From positions 480,001-544,000 of the forward strand of contig CAVRAG010000008.1 in NCBI GenBank assembly GCA_963718895.1: a stretch of DNA of 64,000 nucleotides. The letters run 5' to 3'. The stretch's first letter is position 1; each line of letters opens with the position of its first letter. A program made the translations under genes and the position numbers. This DNA is from an uncultured Nitrososphaerota archaeon (lineage in GTDB: Archaea; Thermoproteota; Nitrososphaeria; Nitrososphaerales; Gagatemarchaeaceae). Positions 5,949-12,962 of this stretch are shown here, one piece after another. The notes beneath the pieces were generated by a model. The model made no database searches, was not told the origin of the DNA, and was given only the letters and a program-made list of their open reading frames with translations.

Positions 5949-5964
5949 CTTTACGAATGTCAAG
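5949..5964. promoter_or_regulatory. Candidate copper-regulator operator CTTnAC-N4-GTnAAG
   Basis: CTTTACGAATGTCAAG between the divergent YHS and regulator genes; its reverse complement matches the site before copA at 14/16. Confidence 0.65.
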
Positions 5965-6622
5965 CTTTTTATTCCTGCGGTCTCTCGTACATCACCTGAA
6001 ACCCGACGCTATCGATACCAGGATACTCGAGGTTCTGATGGATGACGGGCGAGCCTCGTTCAGGCAGATAGCTCAGAGGACCTCCCTCACCACCCCGACA
6101 GTCTCGTCCCGAGTCGCAAGAATGACTAGGGCCGGTCTAATCAAGAAATTCATCCCCTTACTCTCGGGAGATTCGGTCAACCGCGGGGTCACGACCCTGT
6201 TGACGCTGAAGGTAGGTTCCGCTTCGGTTCAGAGGCTCGCCGAGGACCTGGCGAAGATACGAGAGGTGGAGGCTGTCTACATGACGACGGGACAAAGCAT
6301 CACGCTGAAGGTTACCCTGGACAGCGTCCAGAGTCTGCAGTCCTTCCTAGCTCAGAACGTCTTGAAGAAGCGGGGCGTCGAGGTGACATCGAGCCAGATA
6401 ATCACGAGCACGGTGAAGGAAGAGCCTCCTTCTTTCCTTCCGAGCACGCTTGTCATGAACCTGAAGTGCGACTACTGCGGAGGAGACGTGACGAGCAGCC
6501 GCCCCTACACCATCTCGGTGGGCCCCTCACACTACTACTTCTGCTGCAAGACATGCAGGAAGGACTATCTCGGGGAGCACAGTAAGAGGCTTGCGAAGAT
6601 TACACGCAAGCTCGAGTCATGA
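5957..6622 (+). CDS. Lrp/AsnC-family regulator with C-terminal TRASH domain (CopT/CopR-like)
   Basis: HTH DGRASFRQIA..TVSSRV; CDYCG...YFCCKTC; true start may be downstream (in-frame CTG at 5996). Confidence 0.85.
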   Translation: MSSFLFLRSLVHHLKPDAIDTRILEVLMDDGRASFRQIAQRTSLTTPTVSSRVARMTRAGLIKKFIPLLSGDSVNRGVTTLLTLKVGSASVQRLAEDLAKIREVEAVYMTTGQSITLKVTLDSVQSLQSFLAQNVLKKRGVEVTSSQIITSTVKEEPPSFLPSTLVMNLKCDYCGGDVTSSRPYTISVGPSHYYFCCKTCRKDYLGEHSKRLAKITRKLES

Positions 6623-6680: not shown

Positions 6681-8780
6681 ATGGCGTCGGACCCGATCTG
6701 CGGAATGTACGTCGACGAGGCCACCGCCGAGCTGAAGGCGGAGGTCAGGGGGGTCACGTACTACTTCTGCAGCGAGTCCTGCATGCACGAGTTCCTGGCC
6801 CCGGAGAAGGAGCTCCGGAAGCTCAAGATCGAAGTTCTCGCCTCGGCGCTTCTCTCTATCCCGATACTCCTCTTCACCTATGTCTCTCCCCTCTCAACGC
6901 AGTCCTCCAGTTACATCCTCTTCGCGCTCGACACACCCATCCAGTTCATCGTCGGATGGAGGTTCTACCGCGGAGTCTACGACAGCGTCAGGAGCAGGAT
7001 GGGGAACATGGACGTCCTGATCGCGCTAGGCACGTCTGCGGCGTGGGCCTACTCGACCGTTGTCACCTTCGGCCCCGGGTTCTTCCCCTCCTCCGGCGTC
7101 TACTTCGACACTTCCGCGATCATCATCACCCTGATTCTGACTGGCCGGTATCTCGAGCACGTGACGAAGAGCAGGGCCTCCGCAGCGGTGAGGAAGCTAG
7201 TCGACCTCCAACCGACCGTGGCTCACAGAATCGACGGGAGGGGTGCGGAGGTCGACGTTCCAATAGAGCAGGTCGAGGTCGGAGACGGTTTGGTCGTAAG
7301 ACCTGGGGAGAAGATCCCCGTGGACGCGATTATCGTAGAGGGAAGGTCGGCCATCGACGAGTCCATGATCACGGGCGAGAGCATACCCGCCGAGAAGTCG
7401 GCAGGAGACGAGGTCATAGGAGCGACGATCAACAGGTCTGGGCTGCTGAAGCTGAAAGCGGAGAAGGTGGGCCAGGACACCGCGCTATCTCAGATAGTCA
7501 AGCTCGTCGAGGAGGCTCAGGCCGGAAAAGCGCCCATTCAGAGGCTCGCAGATAGGATCGCTTCATATTTCGTTCCCGTAGTCGTAGCGGCCGCTACCGT
7601 CGCCAGCCTATCCTGGTACTTCTTCGGCCACATAGGGTTCGGCTTCTCCATGCTCGTCTTCGTCTCGGTCGTGGTGATATCTTGCCCGTGTGCACTCGGC
7701 ATCGCTACTCCAGCAGCTCTCCTAGTGGGTACGAGCAAGGGCGCGCAGAGCGGCGTTCTGATCAAAGGAGGCGAGTACCTAGAGCTCGCCAGCAAGGTCG
7801 ACATCGTCATATTCGACAAGACGGGGACGCTCACCGTTGGGAAACCCTCGGTCACCGATGTCATCCCCGTCGATACTCTCAGTTCGGACGAACTTCTGAG
7901 ATTTGCGGCCTCGGTCGAGAAGGGTTCCGAACACCCGCTGGGTCAGGCCATCGTCAACGAGGCGAAGAGCCGCTCCATCGGTCTGTCTGACCCGCAGGAC
8001 TTCGAGGCGGTCGCTGGAAAGGGTGTCAAGGCCAGGGTGGACGGCAGAGTAGTTCTGCTGGGAAACAGGCGACTCATCACAGAGAGCGGTGGAGACCTCT
8101 CGGCGGCGGAGTCGGAAATCAGCAAACTGGAAGATGAAGGAAAGACCGCCATGATTGTCTCTCTGGATGGGAAGGTCGAAGGGGTCGTCGCGGCCGCGGA
8201 TACGGTGAAGCCGTCGGCCAGGGCGACCGTGGACGCTCTGAAAGCCATGCGAGTTCAGGTCGTGATGCTGACTGGAGACAACTCCAGGACTGCGGCCGCA
8301 ATCTCGCAGAAGATTGGCATCGACAAGTTCGTCGCCGAGGTTCTTCCGCAGCAGAAGGAGGAGAAGATAGAGGTCCTGCAGAAGGAGGGGAGGGTGGTCG
8401 CCATGGTGGGGGACGGCATCAACGACGCGCCGGCGCTGGCCAGGGCTGACGTCGGGATAGCAATCGGCAGCGGAACCGACATCGCGAAGGAGACGGGCGG
8501 GATCGTGCTGATCAAGGACGACCTCCGGAACGTTGCGACCGCAATCAAACTCAGTCGGAAGACGCTCGCGAAGATCAAGCAGAACCTCTTCTGGGCCTTC
8601 GCGTACAACGTGGTCCTGATACCCGTGGCAGCGGGGGCGCTCGTGCCGGCCTTCGGGGCCCAGGTCTACACGGTCCTCCCCTTCCTGGCGGCGGGTGCGA
8701 TGGCAGTGAGCTCGGTAACGGTGCTAAGCAACTCGCTCCTGCTGTTCAGGTTCAAAGCGGATTTCGGTGAGAAAGCTTGA
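6681..8780 (+). CDS. copA: Cu(I)-transporting P1B-1 ATPase with N-terminal YHS domain
   Basis: DPICGM..FCSESC, TGES, CPC, DKTGT, HP, GDGIND, YN and MxxSS. Confidence 0.95.
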
Positions 8781-9034
8781 GCCAGGAGAAGGCGGGGAAA
8801 GGCAAGAGAGCCGTATTCGCGGTGAGAAACATGGACTGCGCGACCTGCGGCCTCGCCCTGGAGAAGAAGTTGAGAAAGGTGGACGGCATCGAAGGCGTGG
8901 CTAGCGCCATCATGCTGAACAAGGTCTTCGTCGACTACGACGGGTCGAAGCTCGGCGTCAACGAGATCAAGAAGGCAATCAAGGAAGCAGGGTATGCCGG
9001 TTACGTGACCAGCGATGGTAATAAAATGCGCTGA
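8777..9034 (+). CDS. copZ: HMA-domain copper chaperone
   Basis: MDCATC motif, AIKEAGY; overlaps the copA stop. Confidence 0.85.
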
Positions 9035-9128
9035 CTGCGACTGCACCCCTCAGGAGTGCAGAACCGCGAGGTCAGCGCGTGATTGTCCTCGCTGCACCCG
9101 CGAAGTCTGCTGTTGCTGGGTAGGTTAG
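9015..9128 (+). CDS. 37-aa Cys-rich metallothionein-like peptide (below the ORF-track cutoff)
   Basis: [37 protein letters not shown]; 9 Cys; overlaps the copZ 3' end; Cys spacing matches the N-terminal domain of 12219..12962. Confidence 0.7.
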   Translation: MVIKCADCDCTPQECRTARSARDCPRCTREVCCCWVG

Positions 9129-9198: not shown

Positions 9199-10680
9199 TC
9201 ACGTCGTTACGATTGCTCCGTACATCCCGCTCTCGGCGTGCCCCGGATAGGTGCACAGGTACCAGAGGTTGGTGGCAGCGCTCGGGAGCGCGACCGTGTA
9301 GGAGTAGTAGGGCGCCCAACCCGCAGCGTAGTTCGCCGGGCTCAGCACGGGCATCATGTACAGGAAGTCACCGCCCCACATCATCCCCTGCATCATCATG
9401 TAGGGATATGGAGGGCTGAGTGTGGTCATGACCAGGTCGTGGTACATGTCGTCGTCGAGGTTGACCACGGTCATGTGGATGGTAGCTCCCTTGGGGACGT
9501 TGAGCGTGGGGTCGATAAGCCCGCCTATGACGAAGACGTCGTCCTTGGCGTAGGATGGCGGCTGCATGCCCGTCATGTTCGTCGCGTTGTCGGGCATTAT
9601 GGCGAACGCTGTTATGTTGATGTTGTGCGAGGTGAAGGTTATCGAGTTGCTGCTCTGAGATACGGTCGCGCCCTCCGGCGCCGTCTTCAGTAGCGCCTCT
9701 GCAGCTGCGATGGACATCGTCCCGGGTGGAAGGCTCGTCGAGGTGGAGGTGGTGTGGGTGCTGGATGTCGTGCTGGAGGCGGCAGAGGTCGTGGACGTGC
9801 TTGTCTGGCTCGTCTTGATTGTACTGGTGCTCGAGGTCGTAGTACTGGTAGTGGTTCCGGTCGTCACGATCTCACCATACATGCCCCCCATGCCGTGGCC
9901 AGGATACGTGCAGACGTACCAGAGGTTCGCGTAGCTCGGGATGGTTACTGTGTAGGAGTAGGTGAACGCCCATCCTGCGCCGTAGTTTGCGGGGCTGAGG
10001 ACGGACATCATGTACAGGAATCCCTGGAAGCCGCTGCCCCCCATCATCCCCGTTCCGTACCCGTTCCAAGTCATGTACTGGCTCATGTTGGAGGCGAAGG
10101 GCGGGCCCACCGTCGAGACCACTAGGTCGTTGTACACCGCGTTGTCCATGTTGACTATGGTGAAAGTCACCGCCGCGCCCGTCGGGATGTACAGCGTCGG
10201 GTCGATCAGGCCGCCCATGACGAATACGTCGCCCTGAGCATACGAGGGTGGATGCATCCCGGTCGTACGAGTGGCGTTCTCCTGCGTGGTGGCGAAGGCC
10301 GTGATGCTGATGCTAGACGAAGAGGTGAACGTTATCGAGTTGCTGCTCTGGGAGACGGCCGCGCCCGCGAGCGGAGACCCCATGAGCGCCATGGCCTCGC
10401 TGATGGAGATGGACCCGCTCGGAAGACCAGTGGAGGTGCTGGAGCTGCTGGTCGTTGTTCCCGGGCTCGTTGAAGCCGTGCTCGTGCCAGATTGGGTGCT
10501 GCTGCCGGTCACTGTCTTTGTGCCGGCTCCTCCCAGACCATATGCGCCGTAAGCGGCGACCGCTGCGACCGCTATGATGACTATGACCACTATGGCGAAG
10601 ATGGAGTTAGAAACTCCGGGCTTCCGCTTTTGCCTGAGAAGGCTCGGCCATGTCCTTGAGACTCCACTATTCAGGGCCAA
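9199..10680 (-). CDS. Membrane-anchored protein with two rusticyanin/sulfocyanin-like cupredoxin domains
   Basis: N-terminal TM, S/T-rich linkers, two repeats with GGLIDPTL and C-terminal CTYPGH..GMYG. Confidence 0.85.
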   Translation of the reverse strand: MALNSGVSRTWPSLLRQKRKPGVSNSIFAIVVIVIIAVAAVAAYGAYGLGGAGTKTVTGSSTQSGTSTASTSPGTTTSSSSTSTGLPSGSISISEAMALMGSPLAGAAVSQSSNSITFTSSSSISITAFATTQENATRTTGMHPPSYAQGDVFVMGGLIDPTLYIPTGAAVTFTIVNMDNAVYNDLVVSTVGPPFASNMSQYMTWNGYGTGMMGGSGFQGFLYMMSVLSPANYGAGWAFTYSYTVTIPSYANLWYVCTYPGHGMGGMYGEIVTTGTTTSTTTSSTSTIKTSQTSTSTTSAASSTTSSTHTTSTSTSLPPGTMSIAAAEALLKTAPEGATVSQSSNSITFTSHNINITAFAIMPDNATNMTGMQPPSYAKDDVFVIGGLIDPTLNVPKGATIHMTVVNLDDDMYHDLVMTTLSPPYPYMMMQGMMWGGDFLYMMPVLSPANYAAGWAPYYSYTVALPSAATNLWYLCTYPGHAESGMYGAIVTT

Positions 10681-10850: not shown

Positions 10851-11228
10851 TCAGCTCGCCGTTCGGTTCGTCCCGATGCCGAAGTAGTTGGTCATGTACT
10901 GGACGCACCCCATGAAAAAGTTGCCCCCATTGGTCAACAGGCCTTGGTTCCCCATCATCCCCCACGGTCCTCCAGTGCCCCAAGAGCTTGCTCCCATCAT
11001 CCCGCCAAAGTGCGTCGGTGTCGAGGTTGCCCCCCCACTTGCGGATCCCACTACACCGGAGAAACCGCCCATCATGCCTCCTCCGCCGTAGCCCGACATC
11101 ATGCCCCCTCTTCCCTGCTGACCCGCTGAGGGCGTCTGTCCAACGAATCCGAACGCTGCCCCTGCAGCCAGTCCGACCGCCACCAGGAGCCCAAGTCCCA
11201 CGATGATTGCCTTTTCAGTTGTGTTCAT
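10851..11228 (-). CDS. Gly/Met-rich membrane-anchored or exported protein
   Basis: N-terminal hydrophobic helix followed by four GMM repeats. Confidence 0.7.
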   Translation of the reverse strand: MNTTEKAIIVGLGLLVAVGLAAGAAFGFVGQTPSAGQQGRGGMMSGYGGGGMMGGFSGVVGSASGGATSTPTHFGGMMGASSWGTGGPWGMMGNQGLLTNGGNFFMGCVQYMTNYFGIGTNRTAS

Positions 11229-11367: not shown

Positions 11368-11937
11368 CTAGGCCGAACGGCCTGGGCGGGGTCGCAGGGA
11401 CGGTGCCAGCGATATCTCATTGGTGTTCCCGCTGCTGACGGCCGTCACTATCCCTCTCTCGGCGAAGCGTGAGACTATCCTGTGCGTCTTGAGCTTGCTC
11501 AGACCCGAGTCCTTTACGATGAACTTCTGGAGGTACTTGCCATCATGCGCGGCGAGTACCTCTAGGACCTTGCGCTCGTCCGGCTTCGAGGTACTCAGGA
11601 GGAAGTCCCAGCTCTGTGCGGCTTCCGGCAGTTCTGGAACGGTTTCAGCCGTGGGTATCAGGAGCCGCTTCCTCGGGATCTGAGGGTAGGTCATGAAATA
11701 GACCAACCCGACGACGCCTACGACCGTCAGTCCTATGAACGCTGCTGCCAGGTACCAGACGTACGAGGGCATTTGGAGGTTCATCCCTGCTGAGTTCTCG
11801 CTCCCCATCATCTGTCCCATCATCCCTCCCAGACTCCCCGTCCCAGATTGGTAGTCCGAAAGGTACCAGATGATGATAAGGAGAAACGCGGCGAGGGACC
11901 CGACGATTAGGGCCGTGAACAGCCAAGTCCGTTTCAT
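11368..11937 (-). CDS. Two-TM protein with Met-rich loop and C-terminal winged HTH
   Basis: TM1, GGMMGQMMG loop, TM2, then DERKVLEVL..LQKFIVKDSGLSKLKTHRIVSRFAERGIV..GNTNEI. Confidence 0.8.
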   Translation of the reverse strand: MKRTWLFTALIVGSLAAFLLIIIWYLSDYQSGTGSLGGMMGQMMGSENSAGMNLQMPSYVWYLAAAFIGLTVVGVVGLVYFMTYPQIPRKRLLIPTAETVPELPEAAQSWDFLLSTSKPDERKVLEVLAAHDGKYLQKFIVKDSGLSKLKTHRIVSRFAERGIVTAVSSGNTNEISLAPSLRPRPGRSA

Positions 11938-12218
11938 CGTCTTGTGCCTCCAGATTCCATTCGAGCGCCATGGTTGGGCATCGCCGCACCCTTCTAACGA
12001 CCCGACATCGCCCATGCTAATTAAGGATGGGTTGGAAAGGCGAGAGGAAAGACCACTCTAGGGGTCGTTTCAGCCGCCGTCGTTATCCCTACTCGCTCAT
12101 GCCACGGCAAGGGTCAGAAGAGAATTGGAGGTGTCGCCTTCGCTTAGGGGAGAAGGCTCAACTTAAACTGGCTCTTGCGTTGTCCGATCCGGAGGGACCG
12201 GGATCAGCGGTGTCTCCT

Positions 12219-12962
12219 CTATTCCGCCGCGTGGAGCTCACGGTATGATTCTGTAGCTTCTTTTGCGACGAAGATGAGTATCACTGCGGTGGCAAGATAG
12301 TCGACCCACCAGAGCCCAAGAAGATACTCGGCGAGAAGGCCGACCAGCAAGACCGTGGCCATCAGGAAGCACGTGACCGATTCGACGGCGTCCATCTTCA
12401 GGGGCAGACAACGGGTCTCTTCTCCGATCCTCCTCTTGCGGAAGTAGAGATAGGGCATTATGATGACGGCGCCTGCGGCCACGGCTACTCCCAGCGGCGA
12501 CCCTTCTGGCCGGAGCCCCGAGGCGTAGGAGTAGACAGCCCCCAAGCCTATGACGGGGATCAGGGTGAAGAGTAGCGCGCTCGTGATTTGCTCAGCCCTC
12601 CGGTTCTCCAGTTCCGAGTTGCTCGCATCCCTTCGCAGGTGGCCCAGGACCACAAAGCCCGAGATCAGTTCGATCACGCTGTCGCCTCCGAACGCCAGTA
12701 AGGCGAGGCTGCCCGCGATCAGGCCGAATCCGATCGAGGCGAGAGCCTCGACGGTCATCCACGCCGAGCTGAGGTACTCGACCCTGATTCCCATCTCTGC
12801 CCTAGCCTTCCTCCAGTGGCCGTGGGCGGCACTGCAGCAGCAGGAGGCGCAGTTGGAGCACTCGGCTCGAGCGTTGCAGGGCGCGCAGGAGTTCTCCACG
12901 CAGCCACAGGTCAGGCACGAGGAAGATGCTGGCGCTCCGAGTGGCATCGGGCAGGAATGCAC
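12219..12962 (-). CDS. Cation-efflux (CDF/TMEM163-like) transporter with Cys-rich N-terminus
   Basis: GSLALLAFGGDSVIE, LKMDAVES, WWVDYLA; 11 Cys in the first 43 aa. Confidence 0.8.
   Translation of the reverse strand: MHSCPMPLGAPASSSCLTCGCVENSCAPCNARAECSNCASCCCSAAHGHWRKARAEMGIRVEYLSSAWMTVEALASIGFGLIAGSLALLAFGGDSVIELISGFVVLGHLRRDASNSELENRRAEQITSALLFTLIPVIGLGAVYSYASGLRPEGSPLGVAVAAGAVIIMPYLYFRKRRIGEETRCLPLKMDAVESVTCFLMATVLLVGLLAEYLLGLWWVDYLATAVILIFVAKEATESYRELHAAE

Follow-up and report, generated by a model that had tools for sequence, protein, structure and literature searches.

The copper island and its nine-Cys gene

The window analysed here is a 64,000-nucleotide stretch from an uncultured Nitrososphaerota archaeon (contig CAVRAG010000008.1, positions 480,001 to 544,000 of the forward strand). 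Its cop genes, a cupredoxin gene, genes for Met-rich proteins and a gene for a CDF transporter make up a copper/metal island that spans about 7 kb. The subject of this study is a short gene at 9015-9128 on the plus strand, which stands last in the regulator-copA-copZ unit and encodes a microprotein of 37 amino acids, nine of them Cys. A second copy of the same Cys-rich module was found at the N-terminus of the CDF transporter; the two copies of this genome are less than 4 kb apart, both within the metal island. The features of the island are as follows.

5957..6622 (+): CopT/CopR-like regulator with Lrp/AsnC-type helix-turn-helix and TRASH domains (HTH_24, 3.1e-14; Arc_trans_TRASH, 1.6e-9)
6681..8780 (+): copA, P1B-type Cu ATPase with an N-terminal YHS domain (TIGR01511, 2.1e-181; YHS, 7.5e-12)
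8777..9034 (+): copZ-like HMA metallochaperone, 85 aa (Pfam HMA, 6.5e-11; NCBIfam CopZ models below cut-offs)
9015..9128 (+): nine-Cys microprotein gene, 37 aa, ATG to TAG; conserved homologues; ratio of nonsynonymous to synonymous substitution rates (dN/dS) of 0.14-0.18 against cop-linked orthologues
9199..10680 (-): tandem rusticyanin-like cupredoxin with Ser/Thr-rich linkers and Met-rich stretches (NCBIfam TIGR03095, two stretches, 4.2e-46)
10851..11228 (-): Gly/Met-rich small membrane protein with GGMMGG repeats, read from the sequence, without a family match
11368..12015 (-): membrane-anchored DUF7343 winged-helix protein with a Met-rich segment (PF24034, 8.1e-12)
12219..12962 (-): CDF (Cation_efflux) transporter, 247 aa (PF01545, 4.1e-11, sole domain)
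12804..12929 (-): Cys-rich N-terminal domain of the CDF transporter, with 10 Cys, a His and a Trp (invariant in 20 orthologues; hhalign)

The TTG start of copZ overlaps the stop codon of copA (TTGA), and the ATG at 9015 shares 20 nt with the 3' end of the copZ open reading frame (ORF; 8777-9034). The reading frame of the microprotein is open over 39 codons only; therefore, this ATG is the sole possible start. The Cys residues are spaced as C5-x2-C8-x-C10-x4-C15-x8-C24-x2-C27-x4-C32C33C34. The cupredoxin gene is convergent on the microprotein gene, and the CDF gene is found 3.8 kb away.

At 24.3%, the Cys fraction of the microprotein was the highest among the 623 ORFs of at least 30 aa in the window, for which the mean was 2.3% and the 99th percentile 9.7%. 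When all six frames of the window were scanned, the two Cys-richest stretches of 30 aa were the CDF N-terminus (10 Cys) and the microprotein ORF (9 Cys). The runner-up in ORF Cys content, at 10455-10577 (+) with 6 Cys in 40 aa, overlaps in antisense the section of the cupredoxin gene that encodes Ser/Thr-rich sequence and is probably a composition artefact.

Searching 61 related genomes with the protein as query (P0001), we found 17 places in 16 of them at E < 1e-3, the genome of the window being counted. A short motif-bearing ORF was present in each of the 20 loci that were read (L001 and L004-L022). Across 88 aligned members all nine Cys were invariant, while four other residues (A6, D7, P12, and W35) were conserved at 90% or more. 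At the DNA level, a pattern that joined CADCxC to CCCW with the proper spacing and fixed six Cys codons matched at least 119 public contigs, and the other three Cys, on which it placed no constraint, were kept in 78 of the 80 contigs inspected. These 80 (L024-L103) are the pattern-scan loci referred to below; the other 39 (L104-L142) were used in the codon analysis only. Loci L028 and L058 fell outside the regular expression and were left out, and the alignments exclude L015 on account of its replacements of C27 by W and W35 by R. This L015 member (1193-1381, +) has a long C-terminal extension, lies just before a DsrE-like gene, and may be a decaying copy, as its substitutions suggest.

The codon analysis was made with 119 unique 93-nt cores, taken from 125 of 139 loci. 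The entropies at codon positions 1, 2, and 3 were 0.67, 0.66, and 1.43, respectively, that is, variation at the third position was about twice that at the first two, and TGT and TGC were mixed at the Cys codons. The median pairwise dN/dS of the family cores was 0.21; among the cop-linked orthologues, the value for the window copy against L004 was 0.18. Part of this codon set was ascertained by the motif itself, which cannot account for the free Cys positions, the synonymous bias, or the independent protein-based matches. That the conservation could merely reflect the structure of the rRNA or of intron RNA was considered as well and rejected, since most copies are outside ribosomal RNA (rRNA) genes and the variation is biased to synonymous sites.

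Judged by this pattern of conservation, 9015-9128 is a genuine protein-coding gene under purifying selection. The first-pass annotation had proposed a hidden gene here, with a start at 9015, 37 codons, an overlap with the end of copZ and the nine-Cys spacing given above. All of these details were borne out by the sequence, and the gene is real and unannotated, as shown by the homologs with all nine Cys and a dN/dS of about 0.2. Two of the checks it had named, conservation of the Cys frame and dN/dS, are those reported above, and both came out on the side of the gene.

A family of free proteins and fused domains

The members of the family are proteins of 37-50 aa with the consensus M-x-I-K-CADCGC-x-P-x-EC-x3-S-x3-CPNC-x4-CCCW. 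When the window peptide and the 88 members were scanned with Pfam and NCBIfam models at E ≤ 1, only two isolated Pfam hits came up, in one member each (Zn_ribbon_FGT1_1, E 0.51; DUF7130, E 0.69). Among 111 database relatives of 20-97 aa, none had a Pfam domain on record, and those that were named were called 'hypothetical protein'. When all 1.84 billion representatives were searched with HMMER, only 102 clusters were found at E ≤ 1e-3. In the ESM Atlas, we found only unnamed clusters of 43-44 aa at 0.80-0.82, under the level that counts.

A literature search, which covered papers and not their supplements, found no archaeal metallothionein and no Cys-rich small protein of ammonia oxidisers. 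For N. viennensis, a CopA2-CopZ-CopT cluster and a Csp copper-storage protein have been described; a nine-Cys peptide of this kind is absent from the part of that account considered here, its supplements aside (Reyes et al. 2020, PMC7785015). By these comparisons, the family is undescribed in the libraries searched (Pfam, NCBIfam, and PDB). The suggestion of the first-pass annotation that this is an archaeal family not recognised as described thus agrees with what the libraries and the literature returned. In the sources of the database relatives, the gene was either 'hypothetical' or absent; gene callers systematically miss or misname it.

The record titles of the pattern matches listed were nearly all from Nitrososphaera, Nitrosocosmicus, Nitrosotenuis, Nitrosarchaeum, Nitrosotalea, Nitrosopumilus, and other Nitrososphaerales or Thaumarchaeota. 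The outliers among these listed matches were metagenome-assembled genomes (MAGs): four soil 'Bathyarchaeota', two Thermoplasmata, and one Povalibacter, the last of which may be a binning error. In a sample drawn evenly from the phylum, the family profile matched 11 of 401 genomes (E ≤ 1e-5), each of them from the order to which the window belongs; in one family of that sample (f12), 9 of 56 genomes had a match. Within the genomes sampled, the protein family is confined to Nitrososphaerales. Closer to the window, matches were found in 30 of the 97 genomes of its own family (8 of 26 among high-quality ones) and in 13 of the 22 genomes of its own genus. Such patchy occurrence points to an accessory gene rather than a core one. 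A core ribosomal role, as S27e has, is thereby excluded, and the candidate of a core ribosomal or housekeeping microprotein was rejected on these same family, high-quality, and f12 counts.

The module is not restricted to free proteins. The N-terminus of the CDF ORF in the window (...SSSCLTCGCVENSCAPCNARAECSNCASCCCSAAHGHW) has the spacing C-x2-C-x-C-x4-C-x8-C-x2-C-x2-CCC, with an extra Cys in the x8 loop. Close relatives of this transporter were found in 25 of the 61 genomes, and 20 distinct orthologues keep C-x2-C-x-C-x4-C-x2-C-x5-C-x2-C-x2-CCC-x3-H-x2-W, in which the 10 Cys, the His, and the Trp are invariant. Comparison of the CDF N-terminal profile with that of the free peptides by hhalign gave a probability of 91.5% (E 8.6e-7) with all nine Cys in register and one 2-residue gap, although composition raises such a score whenever both profiles are rich in Cys. 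The register of the Cys residues is persuasive, and by this profile evidence the CDF N-terminal domain is homologous to the microprotein. The second Cys domain that had been noticed about 4 kb away on a cation transporter is thus a real one.

The membrane domain of this CDF protein spans residues 67-239 of 247, too close to the end for the cytoplasmic C-terminal domain that such transporters usually have. The Cys-rich N-terminus may stand in for the absent C-terminal metal-sensing domain. AlphaFold2 modelled the N-terminal domain, from a 20-row alignment, with a predicted local distance difference test score (pLDDT) of 59.7, which made the model uninformative.

Further partners were seen among longer members of the family. 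Eighteen such members were fetched from the representative search and 10 were scanned, of which five had a partner domain: Response_reg (P0149), ArsR-type HTH_5 (P0121), HFX_2341_N/CARF-like (P0159), MerB (P0146), and SLFN_AlbA_2 (P0157). At least two longer members (P0114 and P0122) were over-extended ORF calls. The stand-alone form is found in about 100 loci.

A longer subfamily (...SQAANSFAAECCCWQAAHGFA) was observed at L018-L022, for example at L018:1477-1629 (-). At all five loci, it is directly upstream, on the same strand, of a gene for a DUF996 membrane protein of 200-214 aa (L018:767-1411, -), and this neighbour has a C-terminal zinc ribbon in the two of the five loci for which Pfam was consulted.

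Copies inside 23S rRNA introns

In seven distinct relatives (L006, L007=L064, L009, L012=L072, L014, L078, and L080), the sole copy of the gene detected with the window peptide as query is inside the 23S rRNA gene, in antisense orientation. The insertion is exactly between ...GGUACCU and CGAUGUCGGCUC, at about position 2595 of the Rfam model of the large subunit (LSU) rRNA, which we take to be the LSU/2500 site by E. coli numbering. The intron ends with ...AAGACAUAGUCU...GUUG. Both junctions could be read at six loci, namely in five carriers (L006, L007, L009, L014, and L072) and in the rRNA locus of the window's own genome (L023), while the stretches of L078 and L080 do not include the 3' junction. 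In all six, the signs of a group I intron were seen: a U at the end of the 5' exon, a G at the end of the intron, and an exon that is exactly restored. The introns at these loci are as follows.

L014:787-1816: intron with the nine-Cys gene
L006:1009-1817: intron with the nine-Cys gene
L009:542-1829: intron with the nine-Cys gene
L007:1138-2429: intron with the nine-Cys gene
L072:3011-4152: intron with the nine-Cys gene
L023:1938-2554: ORF-less intron of 617 nt at the same site, in the window's own genome and outside the window

The length of the intron in the five carriers varied from 809 to 1292 nt. Several intron copies have, in addition, one or two ORFs with a GYD domain, which are on the rRNA-sense strand and divergent from the peptide gene. 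The 23S rRNA gene of the window's own genome spans 4002 bp, compared to 2987 nt for the model. The 3' part of its intron (L023, 1946-2017) had a hit to Rfam Intron_gpI, whose 25.6 bits (E 2e-4) fell short of the gathering score (50), and the L014 intron stretch had no Intron_gpI hit at E ≤ 1. The sequence AAGACAUAGUC is present in the 3' core of the intron and is presumably close to the classical P7 region.

A gene for a protein other than an endonuclease inside a group I-like intron of the LSU rRNA has a parallel in fungal mitochondria, where rps3 is found in the mL2449 intron. Unlike that case, the nine-Cys gene is archaeal, antisense to the rRNA, and paired with GYD-domain ORFs. According to the part of the survey by Nawrocki et al. 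(2018, PMC6125680) used here, the ORFs of archaeal group I introns were only of the LAGLIDADG type, and introns at LSU/2500 were present only in Euryarchaeota.

Two of the carriers have further introns in the same rRNA gene: a complete Rfam group I intron at L007:266-515 (67.1 bits), and at L009:2492-2980 a LAGLIDADG_1 endonuclease ORF (1.7e-23) within another intron. The intron-borne copies make up a second, independent curiosity, which concerns what archaeal rRNA introns can carry.

A proposed soft-metal module and its alternatives

Nine invariant Cys within about 30 residues of a cytoplasmic protein most likely ligate metal. In the mechanism that we propose, these Cys would bind metal ions in the following way: CADC and CPxC, the two knuckles, would form a zinc-ribbon-type site, while C10, C15, and the CCC triplet would make a second thiolate site or contribute to a shared cluster. 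The domain would then be a module for the capture, hand-off, or buffering of soft metals (Cu(I), Zn, Cd, Hg, or As(III)). As the last member of the regulator-copA-copZ unit, the gene would be translationally coupled to copZ, and through this coupling the microprotein would be made together with the copper-efflux machinery and would act as an extra cytoplasmic sink or donor of Cu(I). The paralogous copy fused to the CDF transporter would capture or sense the transported metal. With moderate confidence, we favour this reading as a whole, that is, a new nine-Cys family for soft-metal capture, hand-off, or buffering, with a Cu(I) sink beside CopZ and a metal-sensing CDF copy.

The placement of the module is what suggests such a role. 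Like HMA and TRASH domains elsewhere, it is found beside CopZ and CopA, at the N-terminus of a transporter, on a mercury enzyme, and on winged helix-turn-helix regulators, which argues for a capture, hand-off, or sensing module. HMA domains (CopZ, the MerA N-terminus, and the N-termini of P1B ATPases) are used at transporter N-termini and on mercury enzymes, a usage that the MerB and transporter fusions of the family mirror, and the likeness would extend to a soft-metal hand-off beside the transporter or the mercury enzyme. Unlike HMA, the microprotein is without the MxCxxC ferredoxin-like fold and has about 40 aa compared to about 65, with nine Cys instead of two; Pfam HMA gave no hit for the peptide, while the adjacent CopZ was detected in the same scan. 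With TRASH/YHS, the likeness is a functional analogy and not a membership. The family is similarly modular, being found alone, on the N-terminus of a metal transporter, and on helix-turn-helix regulators, and in the window it co-occurs with a TRASH regulator and a YHS-CopA. The TRASH motif is C-x19-22-C-x3-C, unlike the nine-Cys motif; no TRASH/YHS profile hit the peptide or the 88 members in a scan that detected YHS in CopA and TRASH in the regulator.

The comparison with metallothioneins is less close. SmtA/BmtA (Metallothio_Pro) and MymT are likewise small, cytoplasmic, and prokaryotic, and the microprotein resembles them with its nine Cys in about 30 residues and with the linkage of the window copy to metal-resistance genes. 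SmtA has a Cys9His2 Zn4 cluster, and the mammalian beta-domain has 9 Cys. Unlike the ligand set of SmtA, the 37 residues of the window protein include no His, while in many, though not all, family members there is a His five residues past the CCC triplet. The SmtA/BmtA profile (PF02069) matched 0 of the 88 members at E ≤ 1. Unlike the module of this family, classical metallothioneins are not known to be used as domains on transporters or regulators. AlphaFold2 with the 88-row alignment predicted a defined fold with two short helices (mean pLDDT 82.5; predicted template modelling score 0.48). The conserved non-Cys residues and this confident prediction, which set the microprotein apart from SmtA/BmtA, speak against a classical metallothionein, which is floppy, and would be better matched by a structured domain for metal sensing or hand-off. 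The first-pass term 'metallothionein-type' is weakened on the same grounds and is, like its 'Cu/Zn', an inference.

Copper genes accompany the family also beyond the window. The synteny with CopA/CopZ, with a start overlapping the copZ end, was seen in 4 of the 20 peptide loci (L001, which is the window's own, L004, L005, and L013) and the copA-copZ operon arrangement in 1 of the 80 pattern-scan loci. A CopA-like ATPase was present within the locus examined in 6 of these 80, from several genera (L036 and L056 being near-identical), and one further locus had a CopZ-like hit without a CopA-like ATPase. By a rough estimate from 96 P-type ATPase matches in the 61 related genomes, at most 0.6 CopA-like loci of 80 would be expected by chance. 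The ATPase-linked members were scattered on a weakly resolved peptide tree (42 columns, with 42 of the 85 inner branches open), too unresolved to date moves between contexts. At L016, the gene comes after arsR, a gene for a low-molecular-weight phosphatase (ArsC-type), and a MIP gene. The ArsR-type regulator near this member (L016:32-334, -) ends with ...CNDSCCC, again with a CCC triplet.

Several observations weigh against the soft-metal reading. The link to copA-copZ is lineage-specific and confined to close relatives: the position at the end of a copA-copZ operon, as first described, stands for the window and a few close relatives, while most members are in unrelated contexts. The CopA enrichment is a rough calculation over related genomes without a proper test. 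The neighbours of the 80 pattern-scan loci were highly diverse, with 68 Pfam families in 67 upstream ORFs and 74 in 74 downstream ORFs, and no family was seen more than 4 times upstream or 3 times downstream; such diversity means that there is no obligate metal context. Thiol-redox families were among these neighbours, with Redoxin and AhpC-TSA 3 times each upstream and Thioredoxin_4 and DSBA twice each downstream, among several families of thioredoxin-like or DsbA type, and at L010 the gene is between two thioredoxin-fold genes (Thioredoxin and Thioredoxin_3/CMD), with an AhpD-like gene as well. The MerB, ArsR, and receiver fusions are each known from one 50%-identity cluster and from gene-finder calls of the sources, and the hhalign score carries the inflation by composition given above. 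A His tail at the C-terminus, which is common among family members, is absent from the window protein. Finally, the sole copies in rRNA introns of seven relatives are unexplained by any metal-homeostasis reading.

The commonest neighbour family was DUF7482, with 4 of the 67 upstream and 3 of the 74 downstream ORFs, and the GYD family was seen in 3 neighbours. The 141 neighbours included no recurrent modifying enzyme, and the module occurs inside larger proteins; a precursor of a ribosomally synthesized and post-translationally modified peptide, or chalkophore, was rejected as a candidate on these grounds.

Among the alternatives, the one that survives best is a structural zinc (or Fe-S) mini-domain, that is, a zinc-finger microprotein for protein or nucleic-acid contacts in regulation, in which the metal would serve just as a scaffold and the place among the cop genes would be incidental. 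The conserved A6, D7, P12, and W35, the confident fold prediction, and the diverse gene contexts agree with it, and the fusions to regulator and nucleic-acid domains (Response_reg, HTH_5, HFX_2341_N/CARF-like, and SLFN_AlbA_2) keep it alive. The family also resembles the S27e zinc ribbon in having two CxxC knuckles at a distance of about 15 residues (K-C-A-x-C ... C-P-x-C), formed by the invariant C5/C8 (CADC) and C24/C27 (CP.C). S27e was the best PDB match by sequence, though with an E of only 0.45 for a short query with little power; the best Foldseek match in PDB had an E of 8.3, with 0 matches at E ≤ 0.001, again with little power for so short a query. Unlike S27e, the microprotein has five additional invariant Cys, the CCC triplet included, which is beyond the need of a C4 ribbon. 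Zinc-ribbon profiles and folds gave no significant match, MerB and a CDF transporter (the latter in 20 orthologues) carry the module as a fused domain, and both copies of this genome are in the metal island. On balance we consider the zinc-finger explanation unlikely, yet worth serious attention.

A thiol redox buffer or zinc-redox switch, in which the Cys would cycle between metal-bound thiolate and disulfide and be serviced by thioredoxin, seems improbable. It is kept alive by the Redoxin, AhpC-TSA, Thioredoxin_4, and DSBA neighbours counted above and by two single loci, L010 between its thioredoxin-fold genes and L015 ahead of a DsrE-like gene. These contexts are a minority, though; the fusions to a transporter, to MerB, and to an ArsR-type domain favour metals, as does the cop island, and nothing redox-specific is nearby in the window.

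We give very little credence to the gene being mobile-element cargo, spread with the group I-like intron of the 23S rRNA and kept for selfish or intron-related reasons. The sole detected copies in the same LSU intron of seven relatives, the patchy distribution, and the variable genomic position would agree with such a history. Conversely, an rRNA location was found in only 4 of the 80 pattern-scan loci, the ORF is antisense to the intron RNA, its 40 aa have no nuclease or maturase features, and purifying selection together with the fusions to cellular proteins suggests a host function. The weakest explanation, an untranslated chance frame in GC-rich DNA at the copZ 3' end, would suit a short, unannotated ORF overlapping copZ, but has a negligible probability: the frame, with all nine Cys invariant and its variation biased to synonymous sites, is kept in well over 100 contigs, and its Cys fraction is the highest of the 623 ORFs.

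Taken at its widest, and only tentatively, the soft-metal reading would make this the first archaeal metallothionein-like or metal hand-off family, private to ammonia-oxidising archaea and close kin and modular, and would add, in several genera, an antisense intron cargo with GYD partners that is unreported in archaea. Ammonia-oxidising archaea depend on copper enzymes and are drivers of global nitrification, and their cytoplasmic metal buffering is poorly known. If the soft-metal reading is true, the Cys9 module would be a testable candidate for the missing cytoplasmic metal buffering or hand-off in these archaea.
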